A DNA stretch of 64,000 nt. Origin: Plasmodiophora brassicae. Its lineage: Eukaryota. Position numbers and translations under genes: made by a program. The notes below the pieces were generated by a model, which worked only from the letters and a program-made list of their open reading frames with translations, made no database searches and was not told where the DNA came from. The stretch spans positions 620,001-684,000 of the forward strand of contig CP145415.1 in the NCBI GenBank assembly GCA_036867785.1, written 5' to 3'. Positions 9,921-62,024 of the stretch are shown one piece after another; positions within the stretch are counted from its first letter, which is position 1; each line of letters begins with the position of its first letter.

Positions 9921-10389
9921 CGACGACATCGGTGGGAACGCGAGGCACGTCCCAGTTTGCAAGAGATATCAGAGTGAAGCGTGTACATGCGGAAGGAATC
10001 CAGCTGCGGTTACGAGTTCGGCCGAACGTTCAGGGATCGTTCCGGCCGAGGGATTGCCCGACCCAGGATGACGACGGAGGCGTTTCGACGCGCACCAGGG
10101 CCAGACGACTCCAGATGAACCCCCTGCTCGACGGACGCTGTACTGCTCTTTGCAGCAAGGGAGTCATGGTTTGGTGCTGCCTGCTCAAGTTCCTGATAAT
10201 ACGCGGCCGTTCCCGAATCGCGTCGTCGACCTGTATGTACCCTGGCCTGGGGACCTAGGTATGTGTTCCAGCCCCCAACCGCAGCTGGATTCCTCGCGAA
10301 CGTACACGCTTCACTTTGATGTCCCTTGCGAACTGAGACGTGCCTCGCGTTCGTGGTCGCCGGCCGTTACGTTCCCATCGATGTCGTCG
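9921..10389. repeat. Imperfect long inverted repeat (arms ~9921-10011 and ~10277-10389)
   Basis: Both strands encode nearly the same peptide (RGTSQFARDIRVKRVHAEGIQLRL vs RGTSQFARDIKVKRVRSRGIQLRL). The DNA arms are reverse complements with an indel. Confidence 0.85.
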
Positions 10390-10775
10390 CTGCCACAAGC
10401 TGGGGCACATGACACCCGCTGCAACCGAACTGCGACGCCAAATGTTGTAGGTATCTCTGACACCAAGGATATAGCGCTTCACGTTTCCCAATGTATCCCA
10501 GCCGGTGTGCAATAACTCTACTTGAGGTTGAGCAAGCCAGGTTCGCCTGTGCAAGGCGATGGCCCGCAACAGGGTACAGGGGGCACCCGTGCCCGACCAG
10601 TGTACATACAACAGAGCATACCTATGTTGATCGACGACGTTTACAGCGCGTTGTCCAGGCCCATTCATATACGGCGTCTGTGCCAACTGCCAAGTGACCA
10701 CGAATGAGGCCATCGTTTGTTTTGTCCATTGCTAACGGCTGCTGCTGACCATTAAATATTAGCAGCGCATTTATG

Positions 10776-12611
10776 TTAAACTCTATGAATCAGAATAGGT
10801 CTATCGTCGATGTCGTCGTCATTTCGCGGTAGAGACGGTTTAGGTCGTCGTTCAGGCGAATATCGCCGGCCGACCGCCATCGTGTGATGCAGCGCCACGG
10901 GGACGGCGAGGAATGAGACGACAGTGACAGCGAGAATGTGGAGGTAGACTTCGCGGCTTAACAGCGACAGCTGATAAGCTCGTGCGGCCAAGATCATGCT
11001 GAATTCCGCAACGGTTGAAACGCTGACCCCGATAGTGATCGCAGTCCGCTTCGTGTGGCCGGACAAACTGGCCGCAGAGAACCCGGATACGAACTTGGAC
11101 GCCAACACCAATGACAGCATCAACAAGATGGAGAACATGTGCGTTAGCAGGAACCTCGGGGATATGAGCATGCCAATGCTGGCGAACAGAATGCCTGGTG
11201 ATCAGAGGTCAAACGGCGAACATGCTGGTGCAGCGTACAGAGCGTACTGGAGAAGATTTCAGTGAGCGGTCGCAGCTTTCTCAGTGCTTCTCTGCCGACT
11301 TCTGAGTCGGAAATTGTAATTCCTGAAAGCACACCCTCAGGGCGGGTCACGTAACCTTACAGCGGGCACGTACCGGCAATAATAGCGCCGAATTCAATAG
11401 ACAGCCCAGTTAGTGTGGATATGCAGCTGAATACGACACAGAATGACAACAGAGCCAATAGAAACAACTTGGACGATGATCTATCCAGCAGGGGTCGACT
11501 GATCCGGGGAAACACGTTGCGAGCGAACCAGGCCGACGCGAAGGAGAGACATCCGCCGTAGATCAGTTGCTTCATGACGAGGAACACGCCTAGGGCGCCG
11601 TAATGGAAGGCTTCCTATGGAAGAAAGTGATCGGCCCCAGGTAGGTAGGCAGTAACAGCGAATGATGAAGCATATTCTTACGGGAAGGCAGAGGAATAGC
11701 CCCATGATCAAATCCTGACCGGCAAGAATCGTGGCCGCCGTCCGAAACGCATTCTGGTCAATGCCAGCGTACAGTTCGCCGCGAAGCTCGCCCATGGTGC
11801 TGGACGAACTCAGCGACATGCACAGGGTGAACAGAAGCGTAGATCGGATCCCGCTTTCGCCGAACGAAATGACACGCGAAAGAACGACCTCCACCAGCAA
11901 TATTGTCGTGAACGCCTGCAAGAAGAACGTCGTCGCCGCCGTCCGGTACGACCGCTGTATACTGGGCCGATCGAATGATATGCCGCTCTCAAACAGGAGC
12001 AGCGATACGCCAGCCTGCGCCAAGCTATCAATGAACTTGATGTTCGACGGGTGAATCAGCGACAGTCCACTAGGGCCAACAATCATTCCACCAATGATGA
12101 AACCTTCGAATGATTAGCAGGGGGCGATTCGAACGACCCAGGCAGACGTACCCAGAAACGCCGGCAGACGATAATATTCGGCAACCGCAGCAACGAGGGT
12201 GGCAACAATGAGCAGGACGACAAGGTCGGCAATGAACGCCGGGCTCTCGTGCAACATCGCCGGGTCGTGCATCTCGCGTTTCTTCACATCCATGCGCACC
12301 GACTCGTTCGACAACGTATGTTCCCCATCGACGCGAACCATGCCCGTATCGTAATCGACGGCGACGTCCGACACGTCGTTATCGACATGCTTCCGCAGAT
12401 GATCCAGCTCGACCGCGATCTTCGCGTTCTTCTCGATCTCAACCTCCACCTGCCGCCGCGTCTCATTCAGCTCCCGCATCAGGGTGTCCTCGACGCGTGC
12501 TGCCGCCCCGGTCGCATTCGTCGCCGTCGTCGTCGTCGTCGTTGCCGCCGCCGCCGCCACGCCACCGCTGACAACGAGGACGACGACCGCGACGGGCCAC
12601 GTCGGCGGCAT
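10776..12611 (-). CDS. CPA2 family K+/H+ antiporter (KEA4-6/TMCO3-like), spliced
   Basis: Signal peptide, coiled coil, then TM segments with GGMIVGPSGL, LAQAGVSLLLF, LSSS, QD, FGAIIAG, FASIGMLISP and AEFSMILA. Confidence 0.88.
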
Positions 12612-12648
12612 CGTCGACAGTGTCAGACCGACTCCGTGGCTGACTGTG

Positions 12649-15630
12649 ATGGAGGTGCAGCCCCAACAGCGCCCGCTGCGGGTGCGCTGGGTGGGCGCCC
12701 ACCGGACGTGTTACGCGGCGCTGCCGGGCAAATGGCTGTCACAGCTGCTGGTTCGGCGCGGCGTCGAGGGCGGCGCCGGCGGGTCGATCCCGGTCCGCGT
12801 GTCCGTCGGCGACGCGGCCGTCTTCGTCGGCGCGTCGACGCTGCGCGGGGTCGCTGATGGCGACGTGATGGAGGTGGGGGCGGCGTTCGGGCGCGCCGCC
12901 CGGATCCCGGATGGGGCGACCGTGATGGTCGAGTTCCGCCGGGAGTATGCCCTGCAGGCGCCGGCGGCCATGGTGGCCATGCAGCCGATGACGGCCGATG
13001 ACTGGGAGATTATATCGGCGACCGCGGACGCGTTCGAGGCAACCGTGCTGGAGCAGGCCGATGTGGTCACAATTGGTGCCGTGATCCCGTTCTGGGTGCA
13101 TCAGAAAACGCTCGTTCATCTTCGCGTTGTGTCGTGCGACGGTGGGATGCCGTTTGCGCGCCTGTCTGCCAATTCGCGTATCGCGATTGCCCCCGTCGTA
13201 CGCGTACAGGCGCCTGCACCAGTTCGACCATCTCCTCGTCCCTGTGTTCGCCTCCGGATTGAACGGGCTGTCGATACGGTCCCTCAGCGGTGTGTTGCGG
13301 TTCGGAATGAGACACTCGAGCAGCTTGGAGTTCGGAGTGGCGGGTTCGTTGACATTGCATCATGCGCAGGAGGGCAACCGCCGCGAACCGTTCAAGCCAT
13401 TCAATGGCAGGCCTGCGCTCATGGACACGTCCATGTTCACTCACTGCTGCTTCACGAGCTTGGCTTAGAAAGGTTTCAGAGCGTCATTGTTACGCCTTCG
13501 GACCCACCGAAACCGATTCAACCCTCCGATCCTGAGTCGACGTTCGCTGTGACCGTTCGTCCCGTTCAGTTCGGAAACGCGGACGGTAACGACTGTCGCA
13601 AAGATGGGCCTGGTCACCTACGTTTGGACCAGGAAATGCTCGTTTTATGCCCGGGCGCTCTGATCAGCACCGCTAACGGCCATTGCGTGTGGTCCGTTCA
13701 AGATCGCGAGACTAGTATTGTCTTGGGACCGTCTGGTCAAATCGACATTGTTGCCCATGTGTCTGGTGACGGGCCGCTGCGTTATCCCCTGAGCAATGTG
13801 GCAACGAGACCGACCGTCTCTGCAGCTGCTCCTGACATTGTCAGCACTCTTGTCCATCGTCTCAGAGCCTGCTTGCTGCCCATCAAGTCGCCGACGGCAG
13901 GAATGCTTGCCCACTTGAGAAACTTCAGCGGCGTTTGCCTCAGTGGCGTATCTGGGATCGGCAAGACACATGTCATGCGCGCTGTCGCAGACGCCCTTGC
14001 CGATGATGCCAATGTTCTGGCCGCATTACGCTGGATCGACTGCGCGTCCATGGCAAGCGATAAGGCTGATGACATTAAGGGCGCGTTTCGTCGCGAAATT
14101 GCCGAAGCCGTAAACCGGTCCCCAGCTATCATTGCCTTCGACGATTTGGACCAGCTCTTGCCTGTGGCGAAGGAACACGACAACAGTGGGAATACCCTTC
14201 GCGCCAGCCGCCTGGCGGAGCATTTATCCGATTTACTGCTGGCATTGCGCGCCCAGCTTTCTCAGGTTCCTGTTGTATGGATGTGCACTGCGAGGTCGTT
14301 CAGCGTTGTACACGGTGCGCTTCGTTTGCCTGGTGTATTCACGAATGAGGTGGCCATATCCGCTCCTGATGCACCTAGGCGTGCCGCGATTCTCCACGAC
14401 ATGCTATCTTCAATCCCTGTCGACGTCTCAAACGTTTCATTTGAGTCGTTCGGTGCCGACAGCGAGGGATACGTTGCCCAGGACATCAAAGTGGTTGCGC
14501 AGCGAGCAGTTCATCGGGCTCTCAGTCCCGAGCACAGTGACGTCGCTCACTTAGCAAGGTTCGGTTAGACTGATTCGCTGCTAGTCGCATCAATTATCTG
14601 ATTCGCCTTTCAGTGACCACCTGCGTCAAGCAATGGGCACTTACGTCCCGCTTGCCCTTCGCGACGTTGATCTCCGGTCGTCGGATACGCGCTGGGAAGA
14701 CATTGGTGGTCTTGAAGAGGTGCGATCGACACTTCGGGAAACGCTGGAACTGCCTACTAGGTTTGCGCCCATGTTTGCTGCACTTCCCTTGAAGTTGCGT
14801 TCAGGCTTGTTACTCTATGGCCCACCTGGATGTGGCAAGTCCGTCCTTCGCCTCATAATTGCCTTTGCGAGAACTGATCGCAAACTCTGTCGTCTAGGAC
14901 TATGCTGGCATCTGCTGTGGCTCGTGAGTGCGGCCTGAACTTCATATCCGTCAAGGGGCCGGAGTTGCTGAACAAGTACATTGGCGCCTCGGAACAGGCG
15001 GTTCGCGACCTTTTCGCTCGTGCGGCCGCAGCAGCGCCTTCGATCCTATTCTTTGACGAGTTCGATGCTATTGCACCGAGACGTGGTGCCGATAGCACAG
15101 GTGTCACTGACCGTGTGGTGAACCAGATGCTGTGTCATCTGGATGGCGTTGAGCATCGCGATGGCGTTTACGTCCTTGGTGCAACCAGCCGACCCGACCT
15201 GGTCGATCCAGCACTTCTTCGGCCGGGACGACTTGACAAGTGCTTGTACTGTGGTATCCCTGATTACGCGGCCCGGCTCAGCATCTTGCACGCACTGTCA
15301 CGAAACATGCACCTTCACGCCGATGTCGACCTCGATCTGATTGCTGAGCGCACCGAGAATTTCACGGGCGCCGACCTTCAAGGCGTTCTCAACACTGCTC
15401 ATTTGTCTGCTGTCCACGAGGCGCTCGATCGGGACGAAACGGACGCGGCGTCCGTTGTAGTTCGCCAAGAGCATATCACATTGGCTCTATCCAACACAAG
15501 GCTGTCGGTATCGGCTTCGGATCGGAACCGCTTTCAGTCGATCTACGCTGCGTTCGTAGGCTCGCGGTCGTCCGATTTCTCGCTGCAGTTCCGAGAAGGG
15601 CGCGTCCGCCTGCGAACAGCTCTGGCATAA
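12649..15630 (+). CDS. PEX1: Peroxisome biogenesis AAA ATPase PEX1, spliced
   Basis: N-domain [19 protein letters not shown]1 [14 protein letters not shown]2 [52 protein letters not shown]. Confidence 0.95.
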
Positions 15631-15807
15631 ACGGCAAGTGCCTGTTATGTTACTTTATTCGATCGCATGTGGATGAACAGATGGCCCCCGTTTCTTCATT
15701 GGTTTTGTCAAGTTCGCACGATTTCCTCGGTCGGTCAGGCTCGGCCGCCTTGACGTGCGGCCGGTAACGTCATGCGTTTTGTGCCGTCGAGAAGACGCAT
15801 TTGCCTA

Positions 15808-17667: not shown

Positions 17668-17849
17668 GACGGCCAACGTGGCCTGAAACACATGGTATGC
17701 ACTTTACAGCCTACTACTCAATACAGCATCTAAGTGGGCTTTCGGGACATACTATATTACACGATAATCGCCTGGAAGCCTGGCGCCCACATGCAATGTC
17801 AACAAGCGCATACCCCGCTGACGTGCTGACGCGAACGTAGGTACCTGCA

Positions 17850-22192: not shown

Positions 22193-23561
22193 TCGGCGCG
22201 GTTTGGTTTGGTTTGAACCGGTTTTTTGAGGGAGCGAACCAAACCAAACCAAACCAAACGGCCCTCAGGCCTGCTAAACTGAACCGAACTAAACCGTGGA
22301 CCTGGGAACCGAACTAAACCGAAACCGAACCAAACAAACCGCGGTTTATGAGTCGCAGAAAATGGTAATCTACGAGCCTTTGTCATAATCCAGCTCGTCG
22401 ATGAGAAGCTTGACGACCGAGTCGCTGCTTGCCAGCTCACGCAGCTCAGCAGAACTTATCGTACTTTGCAAATGTCGAAAGGCCTGTTTGACGTCGTCAG
22501 GAATTGTAACATCGAGTCGATGGAAGAGACCCATCCAAGAGGAAACACAGATTTCCGCTTTGAACATGGCGTTCGACAGCGTTTCACGATCACCAAAAAT
22601 CCGCCTAGCTGTGCTGTTAGCACGCTCGGATGGAATCGAGGTAGCTGGGGCTGCCAGGTAATCCACCGCCATGGGATACAACCTTCTGAACTTGTTACAA
22701 TGATCTTGCCACCAGCGGACTATATCTGTAGCTGCACGTTCTCGTCGACCGCAGCAATGTAAGACGATAGCTCTTTGTCGATGCCGTCCAGGGATAACCG
22801 AAGATAGATTATGTCAAAACGCAGCAATGGTTCCAAGCATACCCTATTCGTACGTGTCAGCACTGTGTCCGCTGTCACAGGTCGTCGTATGTAGCAGGAT
22901 GAGGCACATCGTGAGGGAATTCCGCGTCCGACGACGCGTTATAGCTCATAAGATGAACTTCGACGATCAACCGCCTGCACTTAACTAGGTCCACACCTTC
23001 AGGCTTCGCGTTCCTTGGGTCAAGAAACATGGGAATCAAGGCTACATCGGAATTCAGGTATTGGTCATACTTTGATGATACTCAAGTGCAGAAGGTATCG
23101 CTTCTCGCAGCATGCTGCCACGATCACACGACGCCAGCATATCCCGGCAGTGGCTCATCATTTGGGCAAGACCGTGAAGCATTAAGCTCGACAACGGCGC
23201 CACTATCCGAAGAAACCGACGAGCCGCTTCGACCGGGCGACGCAGCAGAGCGAGGAGCTGGCATGGTGCCTGGCAGGTGCTTCGTTTCACGTTGCAGGAA
23301 CAAGCGCGGGGGGCGCGGGCGGAGTGATACGCCCGACGCCGGAGCCCGGACACCGTGGCGGACTGCCTATGTACATAGGTAGCCCAGTGACCAGTTAAAC
23401 CACGGTTTAAACCGGTTTCAAATTTGCAAACCGGTTCAAACCGGTTTGCGATAACCACCAAACTAAACCGAGCTGAACCAAACCGTATACGGAAAGGCCA
23501 AACCAAACGGCCCAGTTCGGTTTGGTTTTGCCGGTTTTGGTTCGAAACCAAACCGCGCCGA
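22193..23561 (-). mobile_element. Second hAT relic with (A)AACC/GGTT subterminal arrays
   Basis: 17-bp terminal inverted match tcggcgcggtttggttt / aaaccaaaccgcgccga. aaaccg/aaacca arrays at 22193-22347 and ~23396-23561. hATC dimerisation motif inside. No TSD seen. Confidence 0.85.
22370..22790 (-). pseudogene. hAT transposase C-terminal dimerisation domain fragment
   Basis: ..RWWQDH..LYPMAVDYLAAPATSIPSERANSTARRIF.., disrupted upstream. Confidence 0.85.
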
Positions 23562-34095: not shown

Positions 34096-37039
34096 CTAAG
34101 CGTTGAGATTGAAGCCACCGCCGACGAATCGGTTCTGCTGCTGGATGAACTGATGCTGCTGCCGCAGGAGCGGTTCGTTCGGCTCGAGATGCTCACCGCG
34201 CTGTGCCTCCTTGTCCAGCTGCAGGAACTTCTTCTGCTCGAGGTACTTCCGCTTGACGTCCTGGAGCTCACCAGTTATCCTGTCTATCTCGTAGCGGTAC
34301 TCGTTCGTCTGCGCCTGCAACATGTTCAGCTCGGCGGCCAGCGCCTTCATCTGCTTCGTCTTATTCTGGGGAGCACCCAGGCTCAATCGTCGTCCATCAT
34401 CTTATCCACAGCCGGATCTAACCTTTAGGGACTGCTGATAGGCACAAAGCTGTTCGGCGATCTCAGGTCCAGGCTGTCGGGCTAATATGTTCTTGAGCTC
34501 CATGTACAGCTTCTGGCTTTCTTCAATCATCAGGTCCTTCTCCACGACCTGCTCGGTCTTCACGATCAGGCGGCGCTGCAACGTCTGGATCTTCTGCAGC
34601 ATCTCGAAGGCCTTCGGGTCGCTGCCTTCGAGCTTCCGCCACCGGTGCACGTTCATCGGCGTCTCCAGCTCCTCAGACAGCGCAGCGACCTTCGTTCTCT
34701 CAGACAGGATCTCAATCTGCAAATGGTGGAGTTCGCTCTTCAGCGCCTCCGTATTGGCCAACTGGTTGCTCTTCAACGCCAGCTGGCGCTCCATGTCGGC
34801 CAGGTCTCGTTTCATCAGCTTGATGTCGTTCAAACGCTCATGGTACTGTATCTCGCCCTTGGCCAGTATGGATTCCTGGATCTTGACCTTCTCGTACAGC
34901 AACGCCAGCTCATCGTTGCGACGGATAAGTTGCGACCCGAGGACGTCCTGGTGGCCCCTCGTAAGTATCATACCAACCGAATGGACGCACGGTCATACCC
35001 TTTCAGCAACGACGTCATCGTAGACCTTCTTCTGCTGCCTTTGGGCTTGTTCCGCCTCCATCAGCGCGAACCGCAAGTTCTTAATCTCAATGTCCTGGCT
35101 CGCCAGGAGCTGATCCGAGCTCTCCATCAGCGCGTCCTTCTTCGCTTCCGTCTTCTTCTGCGTCTTCATTTCCTCCTTCAACCCTTTCACCTGGAAGTGC
35201 TGCTGGATCACGGCCTGGACATCCATTGTCGCCTCGTTACACCCATGGTATTATGGCTAACCTCCCGTCCATTACCTGTTCCTTTTGGCGGATCTCTTCC
35301 TTGAGCTGGTCGATCTGGTGCGTCATTATCTTGAACTTTCGTTTCATCTCGGAAACCTCATCCTGCAACTCGATCGACTGCTGCGAGAACTGGTTCCGGT
35401 CGGCACGGACCGCCTCGTACATGGCCTGCTGCGTCTTCAGTTTCGCCTTCTCCTCATTGATCTTCTTCTGCAGCTCCGTGTTCTCCATCTCCTTCTCCTT
35501 GATCATTTCTTGCGCCTGTGTATTGCTTTGTCACTACACGAAACTCTCCCGCGATACCTATCGACAATGGAGTGACCTGTTCGAATTTCTGCTGCCAGGT
35601 CAACGTTGCAATCGATGCCTTCTCTTGGCTCATCTCGAGCAGACTATTTTGCTTGCGTAGTTTCTCTTCGACGAGCTTGTGAGCCTTGATGTCTTGTTCC
35701 AGGTTCCTGTTTTCATGTCAGCGTGGAACGCTCCGCGGAACGATGACGATCAGACTACCGTTTCGTCTCCTTGAACGCCTTCGAAATCTCGACCGACGCC
35801 TTGTTCTTCTCCTTGGACTGCTGGAACCCAACGTTCAGTCGCTTAAAGGAAACCTGCAGTTCCTTGATCAGCTTTTCATCGGCGTCGGCGTGCCTCCGGA
35901 ACGTGTCCATCTCCTTCGACAGGTTCAGGAGCTCGCTCTTCAGCATGTCTCGCTGCGTGTCGCCCTCCTGGCATTCCAGCTGTTACTACACGCCCCTTGC
36001 ACCAAGACACACACATGCAGATGCGTACCGTTTTCTTCTCCATCAACTGGTCAAAGTCCTTCGCACCTTTGGCGAGTTTCTTCCGCAGCTGTTCGATCTC
36101 CTCCGACTTCTTGCGGATCAATTCCGACTTCGATTTGCTGTCGTCGGCCATGCCGTCCATCTCCTCCGTCGTCCTCTGCTGTTGCTTGATGTACCCTTCT
36201 ATACGCCGTTCGTACTCGTCGTTCTTCAAACGTAAGTCGTCGCCGGCTCGTCGGAAACGCTCCAGGTTGATCGTGTTGTCCTTGATCAACAACCGGAGCT
36301 GATCCGATTCGCCCTTGCTTCGATCCAGCTCGAAGGCCAGCTGCTGGATCTCCAGCTCGCGTTTATCATTCTGCTCCTTGATGCCGATCATCTCGTCCTG
36401 CAAGCGCTGCGCTCGGCGACTCTCTCGTTCGGCTTCATTGAGCGCCTTGCGGAGGTTCTCCTGGACGGTTTCCAGGGTCCCGGTCAATCCGGTCTTCACA
36501 TTGTGGAAGTCATCGACCTCCTTCTTCAGGGAGTCGATCTGGACGGATTGCGATTTGATCTGGTCGTTGAGCGCGGTAACCTCCGCCTGGAATTTCTCCT
36601 TCTCGGCGAGAAGGTCGTTGACGGCGTTCTCCTGGCCAATGCTGAGGCCCGCACCTTGATCGACTAGGCGGCTGAGGTTAGCGATCTCGACCTTCAGCTG
36701 CGCGGTCGTCTTCTTCGCGTTCTTCTCCTTCTCGTGCGCGGCGTCCACCATCTTCCACGCCTTGTCGATCTCCTTCTTCAGGAGCTGGATCGAGTTCTGA
36801 TCCTCCTGGCTGAGGCGCAGGGCGGCATGCACCTTCGACGCGTTCTGCAGGATCTCGGCGTTCAACGACCGGCACTTGTTGATCAGCATCTTCTCGTTCT
36901 CATGCGACTTCTTCAGCGCACTGTGCAACTTCTCGTACTCGTTGCGGAACGTCTTCAGCGAGTCATCAGCGGACAACTGCTCGAACACCTTCTTGAAATC
37001 GCGTTCCATCGCCTCAAACGTGTTCGCCTGTGTCGACAT
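34096..37039 (-). CDS. CFAP58: Cilia- and flagella-associated protein 58 (CCDC147), spliced
   Basis: FRNEYEKLHSALKKSHENEK, LVDQGAGLSIGQE, YEAVRADRN, LGSQLIRRNDELALLYEK, PMNVHRWRKLEGSDP, LARQPGPE, RFVGGGF. Confidence 0.95.
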
Positions 37040-37616
37040 GGCGAGATCGGCATCATTGACTCCACCCGCATCTGTTGCCGTCGGCAGTGACTAAACCAGT
37101 ACACACTGTGAGCCGAATTACGTTATGCAAGATGGTGCACTTACGTCCGCCATTGCAGGTCCTGCAGGCGCCGACAGCGCCGACCGCGACTAATGGCGTT
37201 CGACGAATCGTGGTACTTGTGATCGATCCGATCATAGTAGCGTACGGCATGGCACGTCTGCACGAGCAACCTTGCTGTCACATCATAGTTGAAATGTCGC
37301 CTCCTTTGTGCCGCGTTCGAGGACCTTGACGACCACCTGGAACAGAAACAGACGAATCGAATGAGGCCGATGGACGGTGTTCACGAACGATCAGCTATAA
37401 AGGTATCCTTTTCGCCAGACTTGCTCGATGACATGTTTGACGCATGGACGGCATGGTGCACGCCGTGCTCTTGCTGGTTCTTTTGCAGATTGGTCGTTGG
37501 TACTGGTCGACGACACACACAGCATCGAGGGTGACCAGCAGCCGAAAGTGTGGATGGATGATATCGATCAGGCAGTCCAAAGTGTCCGGCAAATACTAGG
37601 GGTCACGCTTGCGCCT

Positions 37617-37904
37617 CTGGGGAGGTGGACGAATGGCCCGTAGCACAAGGTTGTGTCGCCAATGCTCGACGAGTGCCACAAGTACTCGATCGAATATCGA
37701 TACAGGTACAATGTGAACAAGTGCGTCCTGAGCGTGCCGAAGCACCACCCAGCGTCAGGGTCGGTAGCGGTGGCAGCGCCGGGTGCTTCGGCACGCTCAG
37801 GACGCACTTGTTCACATTGTACCTGTAGCGATATTCGATCGAGTACTTGTGGCACTCGTCGAGCACAAAACCTTGTGCTACGGGCCATTCGTCCACCTCC
37901 CCAG
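37617..37904. repeat. Near-perfect fold-back inverted repeat (arms 37617-37746 and 37782-37904, 35-nt loop)
   Basis: The arms are reverse complements apart from one substitution and one small indel/bulge region. Confidence 0.97.
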
Positions 37905-38206
37905 CTCAGGTCAAATGGCTGAGCGGTGGCTGAGCTGAGTGTATTTTTTCTAGTAGAAGAGATTGTCGCCCGCATTGTGGCGCATGGAAGCTCCCCTACG
38001 AGGGTCTGTGTTGCTGCAGACGTTACCAGCAAGTATCACTGCCCTTCAGTCGGGTCGACTCTCAGCCCAGTCGCCGCTCAGTTCGGCGCTCGGTGTTGCC
38101 CGCCAACCGCAGGAGCTATTTTTACACATGGTCAACGCAACCGCCAGTCGTCTGCTGCTAAATTTGGGCCACCGGCCACGTCGGCACGGCTGCCGTACTG
38201 GCGCGC

Positions 38207-39745
38207 GTGTCGATGCTGGCGTCGACGAACCGTTCAACTTCTGCTGCAGGCAACCTGCTGCTCTGCACTGGCCTACTGGCCCTGTTCAGCGGGTTTGTCC
38301 TCGGCTGTTTCTGGTTAGGTCAACCGCAATGGTTCCGCTCGGACCCACCTGGTCCGATCCCTCGACCTGCCCCGCTTCACGGACCTGTACAGGCGCCGAG
38401 ACGCGTCACAAGGCAGCGCTGGGCTACGCTTGCCAAATCTGCTGTCACAGGCGGTCTCGTTGCAGGCATCGTCCTCTCTCTTCCAAGGGCATTCGAGGTC
38501 AACTCTCGGCCGCCACCACGACCATTACTTGCAAATCCAGCCTTACGACTTGCAGCAGCTACTGCTAGTGCTATCGGGATCGGAGCATGCCTGCTTCGTC
38601 GCAGGGCAGATGCGATTCCGGCGATTCCGTCTTCCGCACGGCCGTCGCCGCTCTTCGATGAAAGGAATTCAACGGCGCCAGAACCGCAGGCTCTGCCTCC
38701 GGTCCCTTACACAGGTAATGTGAGCGACGGTGCCGGCAACTTCAGCAACGATACGTCGTCGGATCGCCCCGCGATTAGAGGGCGTGATAGTCCTTATTAT
38801 ATGTCGGCTCCTGCTGCGATGGCGCGGTCCATGTCGAAGCCAGACCTGCCATCGGTTTTCGACCGGGAGATCCGCGATCGGAGGTCATCCTCGCCGGCCG
38901 GCTCGCTGCACAGTCCAGACGAGTTTTCCACGCGACCTGCATCTCCAGGAAGGGCCGGGCGCAATGCCAACACCAAGAGGGCGGTGCCGTATGCCAGAAC
39001 CAAGCGGAGGGTAGCCGATGCCGGACCCATCTGGGCGGTACCCAATGCCGAAACCAACCCGTCGGCCGTGTCCCAATCCCCCAGTCCACCCGCGCATCGT
39101 GTCTTACGACGTCGGGATGCGTCGTTGTTGTATGCTCCTGTTGCGCGTCACTCGAAAGCTTCTGTTCGGCGGACAATCCAAAGTCTGCTTGAACAGAGCA
39201 CGGAAGAGTCGCCATCGGAGTGTCCTCTTGCGTTGGAAATAGAATCGCCTCCTGGGACGCCATCACCACTTGCTCTACCGCCGGCAGCATTGGACACCGG
39301 CGTCCACCCAGGGTCTCCCGCTGATCAATGCATTACGCCAACAGATTCACGCTGCATCGAAAGCCCACCCAGTCAAAGGTATCAGGTGACCCCAGCATCC
39401 CAGCTGCCCAGTCATAGCAAGGATCCGAGGCGGCGTCGGCAACCTTATGCGACGTCTTGTCCCAAACGCAAACGGGACCCTTCCACAGGGAATCGTCAGT
39501 CACTGTCACACGTACATGACCTGGGTCCGTCGGCACCATCCCGGCATTCGCCACCTGGCTCGTCGACGCCCGTGTCCCCTGCGACCCGCGTCCCACTCCC
39601 TCCAGGGGCGTCATCACCGTTTAGCACGCCGGCCGCGTTCTCACGTCGCCGATCGCCTGCTACGGGCACAGCAGAACGCGTGTATCACGCGTTCACCAAA
39701 CGTTACGACGCAATGCGGTTCTTGTCTGACTTCCTGCAGATGTGA
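38207..39745 (+). CDS. Hypothetical membrane-anchored Ser/Pro-rich protein, intronless
   Basis: 512-aa ORF with three N-terminal hydrophobic segments followed by a low-complexity tail. Confidence 0.65.
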   Translation: MSMLASTNRSTSAAGNLLLCTGLLALFSGFVLGCFWLGQPQWFRSDPPGPIPRPAPLHGPVQAPRRVTRQRWATLAKSAVTGGLVAGIVLSLPRAFEVNSRPPPRPLLANPALRLAAATASAIGIGACLLRRRADAIPAIPSSARPSPLFDERNSTAPEPQALPPVPYTGNVSDGAGNFSNDTSSDRPAIRGRDSPYYMSAPAAMARSMSKPDLPSVFDREIRDRRSSSPAGSLHSPDEFSTRPASPGRAGRNANTKRAVPYARTKRRVADAGPIWAVPNAETNPSAVSQSPSPPAHRVLRRRDASLLYAPVARHSKASVRRTIQSLLEQSTEESPSECPLALEIESPPGTPSPLALPPAALDTGVHPGSPADQCITPTDSRCIESPPSQRYQVTPASQLPSHSKDPRRRRQPYATSCPKRKRDPSTGNRQSLSHVHDLGPSAPSRHSPPGSSTPVSPATRVPLPPGASSPFSTPAAFSRRRSPATGTAERVYHAFTKRYDAMRFLSDFLQM

Positions 39746-40325
39746 ACACCTGCCTTGTGCAGTGCTCCCCATCCATGAGATCTGGCTGCACGCAAGAGAA
39801 TGGTGCCATGCAAGGAACGTACTGAGTGTTGCAAATAAATGTGTGAAATTATGGTTCATGCAATTGAGCTGCAGCAAACCCTGTGCCGAGGTCTGTAGTA
39901 CAGCGACGAGGTGCCCTGGGATGTTTGCCAGTGCACGAACTCCCACCCCATTTGAAATCGAGAGCAATTCAAAAGCTGCTCTGCAGCGCGCGCGCGTACA
40001 CGGGCGCCGGCGGGCCAGGTGTGCCGGGAAGGTGCCAACACGTACAGCATGGCACGGCTGTACGAATTGGAATAGCCTGTTGCAGGGGTTGTGTAACGAA
40101 CCCGGCGAACCCAAGAAACGATTGTACTGGTTCTGGTCAATCCTCTTCCATTGAACGAAGCTGCGCTCGCGTTGAAAACCAGTCTGCGCATAGTAGTCTG
40201 TCAAAGATCGCCGATATGTTCGACGGCCTGGCGAGTGGTGTGGATATAAGACGGCCGGTCAATGGCGAAGACCGGCAAACGTTGTGGCAAGCGCGCGTCG
40301 AGCAAGATATCGCTTGTTCATCTGA

Positions 40326-41095
40326 TGCAGCGAGCGCTTGGCGTTGCAATGGAAAAAGACCCGAACATCCGGGTATCAGACAAGCGGTTGATGAAGACCC
40401 TTACCTGCCGAGTTCGTACGGTACGCTCGCCGAGATGTTGCATGCGCGGCTCTGTATGACTACTTCATGCAGTTTAGAGAGTGCACCATTCCGATTGCGT
40501 CAGGGATCGTAATCTCCGGTTTACGCATCGATATCGTGATTGGATCGAACGGCAAGCGGCTTGCTTTCTAGCGGCCCTTCTGGAGCTGCGGGCGTCTGCG
40601 TAGACGATATTCCTTTTCCGGGCCTACGTCTAGGATTTCACATGGGCATCATTGGCATAGAAGCTCCTTCCTGTTGCCGTTCTTGCGCTTCGTCATGAGA
40701 GCCGGATGCTACCTTCGGTTGAAGGCAATCGCGAGGATGCCGTTTGGAAGAATATTTGGCACTTGCTTGACGTAATACTCGTCAGGAAGGCACTCGACAT
40801 TATTGACGTCTGTAAGCATGAATATCGTCTACGCGGACGCCCACAGCTCCAGATGGACCTGTAGAAAGCAAGCCGTTTGCCGTTCGATCCACTCACGATG
40901 TCAACGGGTAAACCGGAGATAACAATCTCTGGCGCTATTGGAATGATGCACTCGCTAGACCGCATGACATAATCATACAGAGCCACATGCGTGCGCGCGT
41001 ACCGTACGAACTCGGCAGACAAGCGTTTCTTCAACCACTTGTCTGATACCGGATGTTCGGGTCTTTTCCCAATGCAACGCCAAGAGCTCGCTGCA
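40326..41095. repeat. Diverged long inverted repeat (arms 40326-40612 and 40820-41095)
   Basis: For example aaaagacccgaacatcc.ggtatcagacaag / cttgtctgataccggatgttcgggtctttt and ggatcgaacggcaa.cggcttgctttcta / tagaaagcaagccg.ttgccgttcgatcc. Confidence 0.93.
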
Positions 41096-42138
41096 CGAAA
41101 CTCTGCACAGTTGAACTACTTACCGGCAGCGACGATGCAGGGCTCGACGCCTCAGAGATGACCTAACCGGTGGATCGCGTGTGCGGGCAATCGCTGCGGT
41201 AGTAAGCACAGTAGCGCCTTGTAAAAACGCGACATCGAATCCCCAAGCGCTAGCAAAGCGCTGTCGTTGCCCGGTGGGCCCGTAAGGTCGACAGCGATAC
41301 CGGCAGTGATGCTACATCTGGCCGAGAACTGGTCGGCACGGGCGATGGATTTACGTACGCCAGCACTGTCGTCGGCTGGTGTGACCGTGACCGGTTGCGA
41401 CGATGGCATGCAAGCAATGCGAGAGCTGGGGTATCATGGTCGTCAGATCAAGGACTGGAAGATACATATACCGCACCACGCTGTTGCTGATCCATCGCAT
41501 TGGGCCTTGGCACGTTCTCCAGAAAATTATGCATTGAAGTTTGCTGGCCGCCGATCGGCCCTGGCCACAGCGCCCTCGATCGGTTGCGCCCAGCGCCTAG
41601 ACGCGCTCCTACACAACGACACACCAGAATCAGCTCTGCGGACCAAGGTCAAGGCGTCGTCGCATGCAAACTTCATAAGACGCTTGTATCGAAAAATGGG
41701 CCTTTTGTCACGGAGTCCGAGTGTCCGAGTCAAAGCTCTGGCTGGGCGACCGGTCCACGGCTTCACACACACCGCGACGAGCGCGACTGCCGGCGCATCT
41801 CCGTGTCGGGTGACGTTGCTGTCCGAGCCCATGTCGGAGGACCTGTCGTCGGACTCGTAGGGCTGTCCCGGACTGCATTGCTGGTCGGTTGCTGACGTCT
41901 GCACGCAGAGAGGACGATGAACTCAATGGCGTTAGTTAGTGAGCTGCTGCTCGCAGATTCTGGGTCGTGACTCGATATTGTAGATTTCTATGGAGGCCGG
42001 GTCCGACGGCGATGACGTGGACGATGGTATTATTCGACAATCTGCTGTCTGATATGTCCAATAGTGATACTCTGTTTATAGTGGATGATCTCTGGTGTTC
42101 TGTGAGCTCGCGCAGGGTAATGCCACGTCACAGCCAGC

Positions 42139-43461
42139 GTGCCCACCATTTACGTTTCGGTGTCTATGCAGCCAATGCAGTCGATCCTCTCGTCAACATC
42201 GATGTCGTCCTCGATGCCATATTCGTTCAACCAGCGAACGTCCGAGCCCCCAAGTATCAACGGGTACCGGCAGCTGTCATATTGGACGATTCAACAGAAC
42301 GCAAGCGAAAGGCCTGGCGTTAGCGCGCATGTCCATAATCATGACCAATTTGTGCCATCGGCAACGTCGCCTTCTCCGTCTCGACAAGCAATTCTGGCGT
42401 CCCCGTTATACATTCCAACGGGGCCGTCCGGAACCACCATTACTGCCATGGCTTTGTCACCACCCAGGGATAAGAGGAAGCGTGATGAAGTGGAAGTGGC
42501 GCGTGCAAGCCCTGCTCTTATCGACGCTTATATCAAGGCTAGCGCCAAGATGAAGAAGCGGTATCTTACTCAACGCTACACGTACTACATCAACAAGAAA
42601 CGCGTCGGAGAAATGCTGAAGAAGCGGTTCGGGCGGCCGAGGCCGAAAGGAACTGGCGATCCGAACGCCGTCCAGTTCCTTATGACGATCGAGGCGGCGT
42701 ATGCTCTGAGGCAGTTGCTCAGGATTGAACGGTGCTATCAGGATGAGCTTCTGCAACCGCTGCCGAACCGTATCGCGCAAGTCGTCAAGATACGGTTGTT
42801 CAGCATGCGTCGTGCTTGGATGTTCCTCAACGAAGTCGCATTCCGCTGCCTGACCAACGACGAACACGCGTTCATGGTTCCTGTCGGGATCTGCGAGTTC
42901 GAATTCGACGGGACGAAAGCGGCAATTGAAAAGTTTACCTGCGGCAAGTACTCGAGACTTCCTGGTCCACACCAGCCAAGCTGGAGTGATCCCGAGGTAC
43001 AACGGCGTGTTCCTAGGAAGTGCTGTTCTGATTGGACATGTCCTCCAGCCGAAGTTCTATTCCTTAAATGGCTCTGGACGATCCAGCGATGTCACGTTCA
43101 CTTTACGTAAAGGAGAGCAGGTATTCGTGCTCGAAGACCGTTATGAGCACTCCTTTTACGGGGTAGAAGATCACAAGTGAGTGCACATTGTCCCCGCCGA
43201 TATGCCATATTGTGATCTCACAATGCTCGTAGGATGTGCTATTGGTACTTGGTTTTCGTTGCTGATGATGAGCATCACGGTCTGCAGCTGCGTGTCGACG
43301 ACGATAGCTGGCTGCCGGTTCGGGCTCGTGTCGGGTGGGTGCCATCAAAGTGCATAGACGTCACCCACCCCGTCACGATGCAGTACTCGGTCAACACGCT
43401 TAAATTCAGGTTAGAATCTCCCAAGCTCAGAGTCAGTCAGAATGGCGCATGTGTCTACTAA
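42139..43461 (+). CDS. Hypothetical protein with probable SH3 domain, spliced
   Basis: FTLRKGEQVFVLED...VGWVPSKCID is SH3-like. LRQLLRIERCYQDEL resembles the first DH-domain helix. Exon structure is unresolved. Confidence 0.5.
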
Positions 43462-54937: not shown

Positions 54938-55138
54938 ATGCGCATACTGTTCCCTATTGTAGAACGTTCCATGGCCATACGCATTGTGTTATGTCCTTTG
55001 TAAAGCGAGCGGATCGACCGGCAACGGTAACGTTTGAAACACGCGGTCGAAAAAAACGTCGCGGAAATTTGTGCGCAATTTTCTGGGCGGGTGGAGCGAA
55101 CGTGCCGAGACCGGCGGGTGTGGGCGAGCGGCGGCTCC

Positions 55139-56768
<1,630 letters not shown>

Positions 56769-58273: not shown

Positions 58274-58555
58274 TCGGGCATATAAACTGAAACAGTCCGC
58301 GGCAGACGGGCGTGAGGCGACGACTGCTCCCATGGGCCCATCTCCGGTGCAGCTCCGCAGTCAGAGGCGCAGGATCGGTTCACCCCCCCGGACCGAAGCA
58401 GAGCAGCTCGTGGTCCGCGACTTGTCTGCCGACCGCAACTTGTTTCACAACCGGAACACCAGCAGCGTCACGGCCGGGGCCAAATTCCCGAAATAGGATT
58501 CGGGGCGTGGGCGAGTCGGCGACCCGCTGCGGGCACTCGCACAGGTTCGCGCCAG

Positions 58556-58816
58556 ATGGCGGACGAGGCGAAAGCGATCTCGCAGCGTCACCAGAAGTGG
58601 ATCGTGGACCTGCTTCGGGACAAGGGCGGGTCGTGCTCGTACGAGGACGTGGTCGTCGCCGGCGAAGCGCACCACTGCGACACGGTCGGCGCCATGCTGA
58701 AGATCCTGAAATCGCACAAGGTCATCGACTACAAGCAACCGTTCCTCATGTACCCGATGCACAAAGCCGACACGATCACGCTGCTGAACGCCTCGTTCAA
58801 CCCTCTGCAATCGTAA
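58556..58816 (+). CDS. Costars/ABRACL-like small winged-helix protein
   Basis: 86 aa. DTVGAMLKILKSHKVIDYKQPFLMYPMHKADTITLL fits the Costars pattern. Confidence 0.7.
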   Translation: MADEAKAISQRHQKWIVDLLRDKGGSCSYEDVVVAGEAHHCDTVGAMLKILKSHKVIDYKQPFLMYPMHKADTITLLNASFNPLQS

Positions 58817-58843
58817 ACCTCTACATACCGGATACGTTAATTA

Positions 58844-59909
58844 TTATTGTTCAGACGGGGCCCGCTGCCTAAGCGGCCGCTTCCGGCTGACCGGCGACGA
58901 CGTCGAGTCGTCGGATCGGTTCTGCTGCTGGACCTTACGGACGTGAACGTTCTTGATCGGCTCCCTGAATATCGACGGGTCCTGCTTCAGCAGGCTGTAC
59001 CATTTATGCTCCAGGCTCTTCGCCGTGCGACCCTTCCAGTCGTACTTCTCGCAGGCGTGTATGGGCACCCAGGCGCGCCCGAACGTCTCCACCGCCTCCA
59101 GCAGGTCCCGTGTCTCCTTCTCGGTCCACTTCAGGCTGCCTCCGCTTTGCCGTCCATCCTCCGACGCTCCGCTGCTGATTGCCCCCGGGCTCAACGTCCT
59201 CTGCCGCTTCCTGTCCCGACTCCTGTACGGGGACGGTGACGGCGACAACGGCAGCGAGAGTGGCATCGGCAGAACGGTCGGTGTAGGCCTGCGAGCGACG
59301 ACGACAGGTTCGGGAACGTGCGTGTCATCGGAGGAACCGTCATCACCTGGAGGACCGTTGTGCATCCGAAAGACGACGTAGGTGAAGTTCGGGACGCAGC
59401 AGGAGGCCTGCAGGCGCGCATAGGTGCCCGGGTCGTACGACGCGACGTCGACCTGGCACTGCCGGTCCAGAGACCGGACGGCGCACCACCCGGACAGCAT
59501 GCCCGGCGACCGGTCCAGCTCGCGGCACAGGCCCGTCGGGGTCGGCGCATCGCCCGACGATTCCACAACCCTGGCGATGACGCGCAGGAACGCGTCCAGG
59601 CCCGACTCGGTCATATCGTGGTCGACCAACGTCACCGTGAACGGCCCCGTTGACGTCCAGAGCTCGATGACGTTCCCGGCGCCGTCCATCGCGGGGAACG
59701 ATCTCGGGATCTCCCCGTCGGAGCGTTCCACTGTCCCGACCCCTGGGCCTAGTACTACAAAGGCACGGTGGTACCAGTGTACAGACACTGATCTGTCGCG
59801 TGTACGTACGGCTCCACGACGCGGCCGTGCTGGCCGGCCCCACTACTACTCGACACAGCGGGACGGGTTGCGCCGTCCTCCAACGGCAGTTCGCGCGCGC
59901 TTCCTTCAT
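58844..59909 (-). CDS. Myb/SANT (telobox-like) domain protein
   Basis: KWTEKETRDLLEAVETFGRAW..I......KGRTAKSLEHKWYSL. The 5' end is uncertain. Confidence 0.8.
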
Positions 59910-59961
59910 CGACCGCGTCCTGTATTCGGGGTTAGGAGGCGGGCGGCGGCGGGATGCGTTA

Positions 59962-61161
59962 TTAGACGGCCGGGTTCCGGTGCAGGTACGGGAGCATCGA
60001 GACGTGCGTGCCGACCTTTTCCTGCTGTGTGCGACCGATGGCCCCGGCGTCGATGTCCACTATCTGTGGCCTGGGCAGCTCCTCGTAGGTGATGTCCCGC
60101 GGTTCCGTCGTCGTCGTTACGAACGACGGCGACGTGTTCCCGCCTGCTTTGGACGATGCCGACTCCATGGCCTGCCGGAACGACGACTTGGAGTGCACGG
60201 TCCGGATCGACGGCACGTCGACGCGGGACTCGTTGATCAGCTTGCTGATCGCTTCGTCACTCGCCTCGTCGCCATCATCATCGACATCGCCACCATCAGG
60301 TTCGTTGTCGTTCTCCCTGTGCTGGATCAAGTGATCGATAGGCCCGATCGGACTCTGATCAGGTTGCCCGTCCTGAATCGCCTGCCGCCTCGACTTGGCC
60401 GCTTCAGTATCAGCAGAGAAATCGTGACCAGCCAGAAGGGTAACCCGGTCCTTGACGCTTCTCACTAAGTCCTGGATCTCGACGTCGGCCAGGTACTTTG
60501 AAATGTCGAGCGATGCCGCGAAATCGATGAGCTCCTGGATCTGCTGACGTTGGGCGGCCGCGCCTTCCTCCTCCGTCATCGACCAGGCGGGTTTACTGCT
60601 CTGCGACGACGCTCGCGCCTTCTCTTCGGCGTCCTTCCTGAGTTTCCACAGCGGCGCCGAGAACAGCATGCTCGCCTCGCGTTCTGTCAGTGCCGAGGCA
60701 CTGCCTTTGACCGCCTCACAGATCCGTCTGCGAACGAAAGCCGCCCTGATGCATGCAAGTCAGCAAAGGACGCGTTTCGTACAGGGATAGTCTGAGTGGT
60801 ACCGCTCTTTGAAGTTGCGCATGCGTTCGTCCTGCTGGGCTTGTTCAGCGAGCCTGTGTTCGGTGTATTGCTGCCGTTCGTTCTTCAAATCGTCTAGCCA
60901 CTTGCGATGCTTCTTGATGGCGGGCGGCGTCACCGTAATGCGTTTCTTGCGGAGGAAGGCACCCGGGCGTCGAACAGGCGGGTATCCAACCCGTTCCGAT
61001 AGATGCCCGCCAGAAACAAACGGCGGTTTACGACCCGGTTGCGCTGCCAGGCCTGTCGGCGGCCGCATCGACAGCATCACGCCCTTGTAAATGATGTGGC
61101 TATTGCTGGCCGCTGAAGGGACCCGCACAGGCGGGTCCGACAGCAGCGCTTCGTTCGACAT
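59962..61161 (-). CDS. Conserved hypothetical protist protein, spliced
   Basis: KKHRKWLDDL, KPAWSMTEEE, ELIDFAASLDISKYLADVE, C-terminal LPYLHRNPAV. Confidence 0.75.
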
Positions 61162-61316
61162 GCCGCCGCCTCTCAACTGGTACACTACGACGACCCACTC
61201 GAATATGATATCCTCGATCGCCTAACCCCGAGGCGAAGCAGGTCCGTTCTCATAGCAGACGAAACTCCAGCGTTTAGGGCAGCTGCAAGCGAATGCGACA
61301 CGATGTACCATCAGCA

Positions 61317-61490
61317 CACTAAGCACTATCAGGCGAAACTATTTGGCAAGATGATGCTTAGCGCACTGATGTACACCATGGCGTATTCTCTGACAAAGGT
61401 GACGTCCGTCAAGACTGGAATCTTTCAAAATGAGATCAAGCTCCGTCCTCATTGCCGACGAAGTTCCGCCTCGCCTGATAGTGCTTAGTG
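61317..61490. repeat. Inverted repeat, hairpin 1 (20-bp perfect core)
   Basis: cactaagcactatcaggcga (61317-61336) / tcgcctgatagtgcttagtg (61471-61490). Confidence 0.88.
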
Positions 61491-61516
61491 CACGTACAAT
61501 CGATGACGTTCACCTG

Positions 61517-61676
61517 GAGGAACAGGAATCCGTATGCGTTCATGTTCACTCCACCGTCTACTTGCACGGCGTCGTTGTACATATTACAAGCTGACCGAGT
61601 AGGGGCTAGTGTGTACATCGACGTGCTGCAAGTAGACCGTGACGCGAAAATGAACGCGTACGGGTTCCTGTTCCTC
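61517..61676. repeat. Inverted repeat, hairpin 2 (~65-bp imperfect stem)
   Basis: gaggaacaggaatccgtatgcgttcat / atgaacgcgtacgggttcctgttcctc and gtctacttgca / tgcaagtagac. Confidence 0.9.
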
Positions 61677-61729
61677 GCGGTTTCATCGGTGCTGCCGTCA
61701 TCAACGACCATCTCACACTCCGACAGCTC

Positions 61730-62024
61730 GTTACGTTCGCCAGCTGAACAGCGCAACCGGAGGAGAATTGGTCCAAACCAGTCATGGATGCCGTTGCGGT
61801 ATTCAGAGTACTAGCGCCTTTAGTATTCTCATCGACACCTTCGTTGCTGCGAGGAGCCTCTAGTACTGTCGATGAGGACCTCTACTACAAGCGCCTTTAT
61901 TGCCCAAATACATTCTCAAAGCGAGTTGCCGAGATAGTTCCGGGTGCGTTTATACCGCAACAGCATCCATGACTGGTTTGGACCAATTCTCCTCCGGTTG
62001 CGCTGTTCAGCTTGCGAACGTAAC
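61730..62024. repeat. Inverted repeat, hairpin 3 (73-bp arms, 2 mismatches)
   Basis: 61730-61802 is the reverse complement of 61952-62024. Confidence 0.95.

Follow-up and report, generated by a model that had tools for sequence, protein, structure and literature searches.

What supplies the double-stranded RNA (dsRNA) for small-RNA production in an organism reported to lack both Dicer and an RNA-dependent RNA polymerase (RdRP)? The question is raised by a stretch of 64,000 nucleotides (nt) from the clubroot pathogen Plasmodiophora brassicae (GenBank assembly GCA_036867785.1, contig CP145415.1, positions 620,001 to 684,000 of the forward strand), here called the window and numbered from its first nucleotide, in which four loci, designated A to D, consist of long inverted repeats. 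These fold-backs are small-RNA hairpin genes, since published 21-mers match their arms exactly and published loci of phased small RNAs fall on B and C. Their small-RNA nature is already in print, and the kind of system is known; what is new here is the mechanism of birth seen in B, the series of ages across the loci, and the proposal that the fold-backs are a source of dsRNA. We put at about 0.75 the probability that they are hairpin-RNA genes born by local inverted duplication and decaying thereafter, whose arms are diced to 21-nt small RNAs. Clubroot is a major crop disease and RNA interference (RNAi) is under development for its control, so the origin of the pathogen's own silencing RNAs matters.

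The small RNAs of P. brassicae isolate PbJS were catalogued by Zhang et al. (Adv Sci, September 2026, Tables S6 and S8; PMC13547706). According to the portions of that paper accessible to us, 90% of them are 21 nt long, phased and with 2-nt overhangs, and the totals are 234 microRNAs (miRNAs), 435 loci resembling those of phased small interfering RNAs (phasiRNA-like or PHAS loci) and 49 resembling those of heterochromatic small interfering RNAs (hc-siRNA-like loci); the miRNAs were called with ShortStack using a fold size of 1000 nt (PMC13547706). The machinery described there has one RNase III, the Drosha-like PbDRL, which cuts dsRNA to 21-mers, in addition to two AGO proteins: this cutting was shown in vitro, and dependence on PbDRL was shown for Pb-miR002 (PMC13547706). 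In the same portions, no Dicer and no RdRP homologue is reported for the genome, and, because of the missing RdRP, the source of the dsRNA from which the small interfering RNAs (siRNAs) are made is stated to be unknown (PMC13547706). It is the sole study of the RNAi pathway of this pathogen.

Inverted repeats of the window

Fold-backs were detected by repeat finding and by minus-strand self-BLASTN across the entire window, and the two methods agree. All five of the significant inverted self-matches (5/5) are local ones, their arms being separated by less than 800 nt, and they lie at four loci; locus D holds a sixth, small fold-back (D0) in addition. The components are as follows:

9921–10389, minus strand: hairpin A, with main arms 9936–10011 and 10277–10352 (76 nt, 88% identity) around a loop of 265 nt
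9921–9940 and 10370–10389: outer extension of hairpin A (20 nt)
37617–37904, plus strand: hairpin B, a near-perfect palindrome of 288 nt with its loop at 37747–37781 (35 nt)
37617–37656 and 37865–37904: outer arms of hairpin B (40 nt, 98% identity)
37663–37746 and 37782–37865: inner arms of hairpin B (84 nt, 99% identity)
40326–41095, plus strand: hairpin C, with arms 40326–40612 and 40820–41095 (about 280 nt, 84–87% identity) and its loop at 40613–40819 (207 nt)
61317–61490, no strand assigned: hairpin D0, a perfect 20-nt stem (61317–61336 and 61471–61490) with 134 nt between the arms
61512–61681, plus strand: hairpin D1, with arms 61512–61586 and 61607–61681 (75 nt, 80% identity), the most decayed
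61726–62027, no strand assigned: hairpin D2, with arms 61726–61802 and 61952–62027 (77 nt, 96–97% identity) and a loop of 149 nt, young

In each of A, B, C and D, the inverted repeat is long and its arms could pair within one RNA molecule to give an extended duplex. Under the identical scan, no fold-back appeared in any of 30 block-wise dinucleotide shuffles. Folding of the RNA, compared with that of shuffled sequence, gave z-scores of −31.6 for B, −29.8 for C, −11.6 for the minus strand of A and −28.4 for D0, D1 and D2 taken jointly, with minimum free energies of −270.5 for hairpin B and −499 for hairpin C. A sliding fold scan with a 300-nt frame, a method insensitive to hairpins with long loops, returned a strong signal at B and D.

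The divergence between arms, expressed as the Kimura two-parameter (K2P) distance, forms a gradient that runs from 0.016 in B through 0.027 (D2), 0.069 (D0), 0.142 (A) and 0.149 (C) to 0.234 in D1. Self-BLASTN of the window revealed no sequence common to two fold-back loci and no similarity of an arm to any other locus of the window, and at the seven sets of boundaries, with a slack of 3 nt permitted at each end, flanking direct repeats did not exceed 4 nt. At gathering thresholds, no Rfam family (0) is present in the window, nor were any tRNAs found there; the matches to B that appear under permissive Rfam settings score far below the gathering thresholds and represent generic hairpin similarity.

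A sequence-only reading of the window had drawn attention to these repeats beforehand, describing long, unique fold-backs at four loci that span a gradient of identity, share neither sequence nor terminal motif and lack target-site duplications, and proposing a comparison with shuffled sequence. On all of these counts it is borne out, with five fold-backs and the 20-nt stem of D0 recovered by self-comparison, a range of K2P distances from B to D1, and shuffles devoid of fold-backs.

Published small RNAs on the fold-backs

Three miRNAs are listed consecutively on Ctg_8 in Table S8, namely Pb-miR120 (629441–629922), Pb-miR121 (660064–660416) and Pb-miR122 (681040–681327) (PMC13547706). The lengths of their precursors, 482, 353 and 288 nt, fit A, the inner part of C and D1, respectively, and their 21-mers are located in the window as follows:

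9978–9998, minus strand: site of mature Pb-miR120, an exact reverse complement of the left arm of A
40550–40570, minus strand: site of Pb-miR121, an exact reverse complement in the left arm of C
40862–40882, plus strand: mirror site of Pb-miR121, differing by one base
61616–61636, plus strand: site of Pb-miR122, an exact 21-mer in the right arm of D1

Each of the three 21-mers has a single exact match in the window, where none (0) is expected (as judged for Pb-miR120 from 100 shuffles). The successive sites are separated by 30,572 and 21,066 nt, and the starts of the corresponding precursors on PbJS Ctg_8 by 30,623 and 20,976 nt, such that the two genomes are collinear here. In the minimum-energy folds, all three sites occupy the 3′ arm, with 19 of 21 nucleotides paired for Pb-miR120, 20 or 21 of 21 for Pb-miR121 and 18 of 21 for Pb-miR122; moreover, the site of Pb-miR121 lies in the 3′ arm whichever strand of C is folded.

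Requiring that each miRNA fall inside its precursor bounds the offset between Ctg_8 and the window to 619,514–619,691. At any offset so permitted, PHAS21-410 (Ctg_8:657305–657411) is placed within 37,614–37,897, which is hairpin B, and PHAS21-411 (Ctg_8:659982–660115) within 40,291–40,601, on the left arm of C. The span of the window contains seven published loci (three miRNA, three PHAS and one hc-siRNA-like), five of which (5/7) lie on the four fold-back loci, and each of these four carries at least one. Small RNAs of the size expected of an RNase III product appear to derive from the arms, as indicated by the published 21-mers on A, C and D1 and by the offset-based placement of PHAS loci on B and C. 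Thus, for 64 kb of the genome, a concrete source of dsRNA can be put forward: unique genomic hairpins underlie five of the seven published small-RNA loci.

The sequence-only reading had likened the fold-backs to the miRNA and hairpin-RNA (hpRNA) genes of plants, a likeness upheld by the fact that the arms of A, C and D1 contain the 21-mers of Pb-miR120, Pb-miR121 and Pb-miR122, and by the PHAS loci on B and C. It had also named the joint absence of RNAi machinery and of arm-derived reads as the outcome that would tell against it; arm-derived small RNAs and AGO proteins both exist, though no Dicer or RdRP is reported in the accessible portions of the source (PMC13547706). Its remark that such loci had not been described for this lineage does not stand, as their small-RNA output is contained in the supplementary tables of September 2026 (PMC13547706), and because the loci are already in print the surprise is limited.

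The published precursors are long for miRNAs, and the stems of the fold-backs measure 160–770 nt. The additional presence of a PHAS locus on hairpin C points to a heterogeneous population of siRNAs. The youngest of the annotated hairpins, B, is a phased-siRNA locus, the older A, C and D1 are called miRNAs, and C is both; this order, in which the young give siRNAs and the old give miRNAs, agrees with the prediction of the plant inverted-duplication model, albeit for five loci and, therefore, anecdotally.

Two of the seven loci lie apart from the fold-backs. PHAS21-409 is placed by the offset at approximately 21.06–21.47 kb, and adjoining it is the remnant of a hAT-family transposase (22370–22813, minus strand; C-terminal dimerization domain, expect value 1.6 × 10−11), which lies in a low-GC stretch at 20.8–23.7 kb. 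The hc-siRNA-like locus Repeat46 (Ctg_8:672945–673501) is placed at approximately 53.25–53.99 kb, over the upstream region and first part of a gene resembling SSRP1/Pob3; no fold-back was found at Repeat46, where the repeats are 14 nt long and of chance size. Among the targets predicted for the three miRNAs of the window in the accessible part of Table S9 (PMC13547706), the only strong-looking one is gene Pb06524, for which the summed miRanda score with Pb-miR122 is 1748; the size of this score hints that the gene is repetitive and holds numerous partial sites.

Origin of hairpin B

Similarity of the arms to a parent sequence is seen in B, both arms of which contain a fragment of a reverse transcriptase (RT):

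37743–37865, minus strand: original copy of the RT fragment, forming the right arm and loop of B
37660–37746, plus strand: left inner arm of B, an inverted partial copy of the RT fragment

The relative in question, PBRA_009663, is a P. brassicae protein of 654 amino acids (aa) with an RVT_1 domain. On the minus strand, the frame that runs through the right arm and loop corresponds to residues 149–201 of this protein (41/53 aa), the match being near-perfect for residues from about 156 to 199, and the matched part lies directly downstream of the FADD box. On the plus strand, the left arm corresponds to residues 151–182 (28/32 aa). No similarity to PBRA_009663 was found elsewhere in the window. 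The search with the RT frame of B found no relatives of similar length, PBRA_009663 having surfaced among longer proteins; a 154-aa open reading frame (ORF) on the minus strand of B was discarded, as it is in the wrong frame and its two protein matches are spurious, tandem-repeat hits. The earlier description of the fold-backs as occupying gaps free of transposable elements (TEs) does not, therefore, hold for B, the arms of which are an RT fragment.

Contigs of three RNA-like runs (X15, X17 and X18) and of one DNA run (X13) were aligned to 36500–42500. The labelling of the former as RNA is a guess, but their intron-less joints show spliced RNA; uncovered parts, which in the RNA-like runs comprise most of B and, in X17 and X18, hairpin C, carry no weight. 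In all four runs, the contigs representing paralogues match B only from 37660 to 37738/37743, or from 37743 to 37865, and translation of their loose ends reveals that, past these limits, they continue as the adjacent residues of the RT. The left inner arm is a reversed copy of the first 84 nt of the RT fragment, and the 35-nt loop is itself RT sequence. The copy and the original meet in a microhomology of 4 nt (GGTG on the minus strand, 37743–37746) that fits both sequences. Beyond the RT homology, the repeat extends for a further 7 + 40 nt into unique flank that is absent from the paralogues, the outer arms not being RT-like; two independent TE insertions as the source of B are ruled out by this extension of the repeat into the 40-nt non-RT outer arms. 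A short spacer together with microhomology at the junction is the expected signature of replication template switching in fold-back inversions. The anatomy of B is accounted for if unique flank and RT fragment were duplicated in inverted orientation in one local event, with a short spacer and microhomology, which fits template switching.

A plus-strand transcript of B would carry the right arm antisense to the mRNA of the retroelement. The word depth of the RT-like paralogues reaches 15,327 and 9,700 in X18, and in the DNA run X13 it is 342, as against approximately 65–79 for the flanks (a ratio of about five), although contig word depths reflect expression and copy number poorly and serve as hints only. 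A second short dispersed repeat is present upstream of B: the contigs that match the 42-nt segment 37406–37447 continue, in all four runs, into unlike sequence on both sides.

Transcription and strain comparison

Two introns were located by the RNA-like contigs in the neighbourhood of B and C:

37108–37158, plus strand: GT..AG intron upstream of B, with joints in X15, X17 and X18, in a transcript that runs towards B
40421–40472, plus strand: GT..AG intron in the left arm of C, spliced in one contig (X15)

A single contig of 1588 nt from X15 spans 39849–41489 with the second of these introns removed, and all of hairpin C is, therefore, contained in one spliced transcript, in which no long open or coding-looking frame was found. 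For the intron upstream of B, an alternative 5′ site is seen at 37099 in another strain. Over B itself, the spliced plus-strand transcript ends upstream, and the contigs are broken at the repeat.

The DNA of the other strain, which is approximately 1.5–2% diverged, carries C on one contig (37852–41332) at a depth equal to that of the flanks. Its right arm of B contains 7 nt (ATTGGCG) that are absent from the window and that restore the symmetry with the left arm. Since the other strain has both C and a symmetric arm of B, the fold-backs are older than the split between the strains, and they are not artefacts of assembly.

Some further observations concern the region from B to C. The strains differ at 5 of 1588 positions in the C transcript and at 39 of 1697 in the adjacent transcript (38142–39837); the low divergence of the former may reflect constraint or, equally, the boundary of a haplotype block. 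The contigs of all three RNA-like runs end at 39819–39837 while the DNA continues, which is a weak hint of a transcript end. Between B and C lies an ORF of 512 aa (38207–39745, plus strand) that is transcribed and has a low codon-usage score; it has no Pfam family and no usable match in the protein atlas (recognition 1189), and only 5 of its 24 listed differences from the other strain are at third codon positions. It may not be a real protein, and B, the interval 38207–39745 and C might together constitute one long, non-coding transcription unit on the plus strand.

Birth, decay and processing

In the scheme that we favour, the loci would arise singly, by local inverted duplication via replication template switching, and would subsequently decay by point mutation. 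For B, a fragment of the RT of a retroelement resembling long interspersed nuclear elements (LINEs), plus some 47 nt of adjoining unique sequence, would have been copied backwards at the 4-nt microhomology, leaving the 35-nt loop. RNA polymerase II would transcribe across both arms, and the RNA would fold back to give a long duplex. PbDRL would then dice this duplex stepwise into 21-nt duplexes, and such stepwise cutting would account for phasing without an RdRP or a miRNA trigger; the products would be loaded by AGO1 and AGO2. A young, near-perfect hairpin such as B would yield a phased population of siRNAs, and old, mismatched ones such as A, C and D1 a few dominant species that software calls miRNAs. 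Moreover, because its right arm would be antisense to the retroelement mRNA in a plus-strand transcript, the siRNAs of B would be able to target the LINE-like retroelement in trans, and presumably silence it. The fold-backs are, accordingly, a plausible source of dsRNA in an organism reported to be without RdRP and Dicer.

Several points weigh against this scheme. The small-RNA evidence consists of published tables, and PHAS21-410 and PHAS21-411 were assigned to B and C by means of a coordinate offset between two strains and not by sequence. Neither D2 nor D0 is given a separate row among the Ctg_8 entries of Tables S6 and S8, as far as these were accessible (PMC13547706). PHAS21-409 has no fold-back (fold z-score −0.97); its dsRNA, therefore, arises in another way, and the hairpins are not the sole source. 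The exact match of Pb-miR121 is on the minus strand and the sole spliced transcript over C is plus-strand, where the miRNA has one mismatch to its site, so that either strand of C may be the transcribed one. None of the 46 stop-to-stop frames of A, C and D (0/46) gives a meaningful Pfam match, and template switching, a process already suggested by the sequence-only reading, is documented through the anatomy of the junction for one locus of the four, namely B; for A, C and D we infer it. The targets predicted for Pb-miR120, Pb-miR121 and Pb-miR122 have weak miRanda scores in the accessible part of Table S9 (PMC13547706). Additionally, maintenance of pairing would be expected to enrich G:U relative to A:C mismatches among the transitions on the transcribed strand, and no such enrichment is seen (5:5 in A, 8:14 in C and 5:2 in D1). 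Since G:U is not favoured, there is no sign of selection on pairing, the arms look as if they decay freely, and the retention under selection that had been offered as an alternative to template switching receives no support.

The lack of such a bias is in keeping with a rival view, in which the fold-backs are neutral debris of replication errors, diced as any transcribed hairpin would be and regulating nothing, and the 'miRNAs' are software calls on decaying hairpins. This view concerns function only, the same anatomy and processing being accepted. The smooth grading of arm divergence, which reaches 23%, speaks in its favour, as do the weak predicted targets, the calling of miRNAs by ShortStack with a fold size of 1000 nt (PMC13547706) and the finding that the miRNA duplex regions are paired no better than the remainder of the arms. 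It has to contend with B, for which the antisense relationship to a retroelement of very high contig word depth in one RNA-like run provides an obvious target, and with the scarcity of strain differences in the C transcript relative to its neighbour, which is constraint or, equally, a haplotype boundary. On balance, we regard an entirely functionless set of hairpins as possible but rather doubtful.

Fold-back chimeras occur in amplified or long-read libraries, and inverted repeats might in principle be produced by assembly or by chance. However, no shuffle contained a match, the arms are diverged and not identical, C, and likewise the outer junctions of B, recur in independent contigs from other runs, and the independently assembled PbJS genome has small-RNA loci at matching positions; artefact and chance are refuted by these observations and scarcely merit further consideration. 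The fold-backs could alternatively be non-autonomous transposons, either miniature inverted-repeat transposable elements (MITEs) or foldback elements, with the arms as their terminal inverted repeats (TIRs). In plants, miRNA-like loci are known to originate from MITE-derived hairpins, according to the accessible part of PMC3237417, the TE table for P. brassicae lists 600 Mutator and other TIR elements (PMC13547706), and the window contains the hAT transposase remnant at 22370–22813. Nevertheless, features typical of such elements are missing: the seven sets of boundaries lack target-site duplications longer than 4 nt, the loci are unlike one another in sequence and terminal motif, and C is single-copy in the assembly of the other strain, on one DNA contig with the depth of its flanks. 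Moreover, the multi-copy part of B is an internal coding fragment of the RT and not a terminal repeat, and the repeat runs 40 nt further into unique sequence. We consider a transposon origin of this kind very improbable, and return to hairpin-RNA genes born by local inverted duplication.

Small-RNA loci beyond the window

The published tables, as far as they were accessible (PMC13547706), were analysed for Ctg_5 to Ctg_9, which hold 118 of the 435 PHAS loci and 74 miRNA precursors. Pairs of neighbouring PHAS loci less than 300 nt apart number 23 of 113, against 0.6 expected from random placement, and many of these close pairs are similar or equal in length (385/385, 259/259 and 509/525). They could be the two arms of hairpins around a read-poor loop or, alternatively, single loci split by the caller. 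The 74 miRNA precursors have a median length of 186 nt; 24 are at least 250 nt long, and 14 overlap a PHAS locus. One precursor of 848 nt contains two PHAS loci that are 126 nt apart.

A more far-reaching, and decidedly tentative, proposal is that most of the dsRNA feeding the siRNAs and 'miRNAs' of P. brassicae as a whole comes from fold-backs, which are made continually by microhomology-mediated template switching and then decay. Whenever part of a retroelement or gene is captured, as happened in B, an instant and heritable silencer that acts in trans would be created, and the phasiRNA and miRNA classes would be one kind of locus at a young and at an old stage. If this is true, the question of the dsRNA source left open in PMC13547706 would be answered, and the silencer would constitute a genome-encoded memory of invaders that requires no amplification machinery. 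If the pattern of the window is genome-wide, it would provide a birth-and-decay picture of small-RNA genes in Rhizaria, a supergroup for which almost nothing is known, and the two published small-RNA classes would be stages of one process. In the accessible portions of PMC13547706, the loci are rows of tables, and neither their hairpin origin, nor the gradient of ages, nor the retroelement origin of B is discussed. A full-text literature search on inverted repeats and siRNAs in Plasmodiophora yielded nothing on endogenous hairpin loci, as judged by title and abstract.

Other features of the window

The G+C content of the window is 51–64%, and its eukaryotic genes include those for PEX1, Sec5, an SSRP1-like protein, CFAP58, TFIIB and a DYRK-type kinase, with introns of approximately 51–60 nt. 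The best named relative of the kinase ORF (3612–4679) is from Spongospora subterranea, with 77% identity; this affinity, the RT match to PBRA_009663 and, decisively, the 21-mers of the three miRNAs identify the window as P. brassicae DNA. A gene at 41745–42500 has four or more introns of only 52–55 nt packed into 430 nt, and contig depth in the three RNA-like runs is at its highest there.

Comparison with known systems

The loci tabulated for PbJS as Pb-miR120, Pb-miR121 and Pb-miR122 and as PHAS21-410 and PHAS21-411 are identical to those described here, the 21-mers matching the window exactly and in collinear order (PMC13547706). With the TAS/PHAS loci of plants, the fold-backs have 21-nt phased RNAs in common, although phasing in plants needs a miRNA trigger and RDR6. 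As no RdRP is reported for P. brassicae in the accessible portions of PMC13547706, phasing would here have to stem from a duplex that already exists, a hairpin for example, being cut step by step. These are, then, not phasiRNA loci of the plant type: no RdRP is reported, and the duplex is supplied by the fold-back itself.

The hpRNAs of Drosophila are long genomic inverted repeats, the transcripts of which form hairpins that yield 21-nt endogenous siRNAs with no RdRP, and some of them target their parent genes. They differ in being processed by Dicer-2 and Loquacious, and they belong to an unrelated lineage. To our knowledge, Trypanosoma brucei also lacks an RdRP. In this organism, likewise a parasitic protist, retroposons, large inverted repeats and convergent transcription units give rise to siRNAs (PMC3447711), which is the same range of RdRP-independent sources of dsRNA. 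It differs in possessing two Dicer-like enzymes, and neither a miRNA-like class nor a birth-and-decay series is described for it in the accessible part of PMC3447711.

With respect to the MIRNA and hpRNA genes of plants, the difference is that P. brassicae is a member of the Rhizaria and that its reported cutter is Drosha-like, not Dicer-like. An inverted-duplication model for the birth of plant miRNA genes was reportedly put forward by Allen et al. in 2004. Young plant MIRNA and hpRNA genes are, like the fold-backs of the window, unique inverted duplications, in their case of a gene or TE fragment, that give rise to a long hairpin (PMC3237417). As set out in the accessible part of PMC3237417, the model has young, perfect hairpins producing populations of siRNAs and decayed ones producing discrete miRNAs, and the homology to a parent sequence that it requires is displayed by B.

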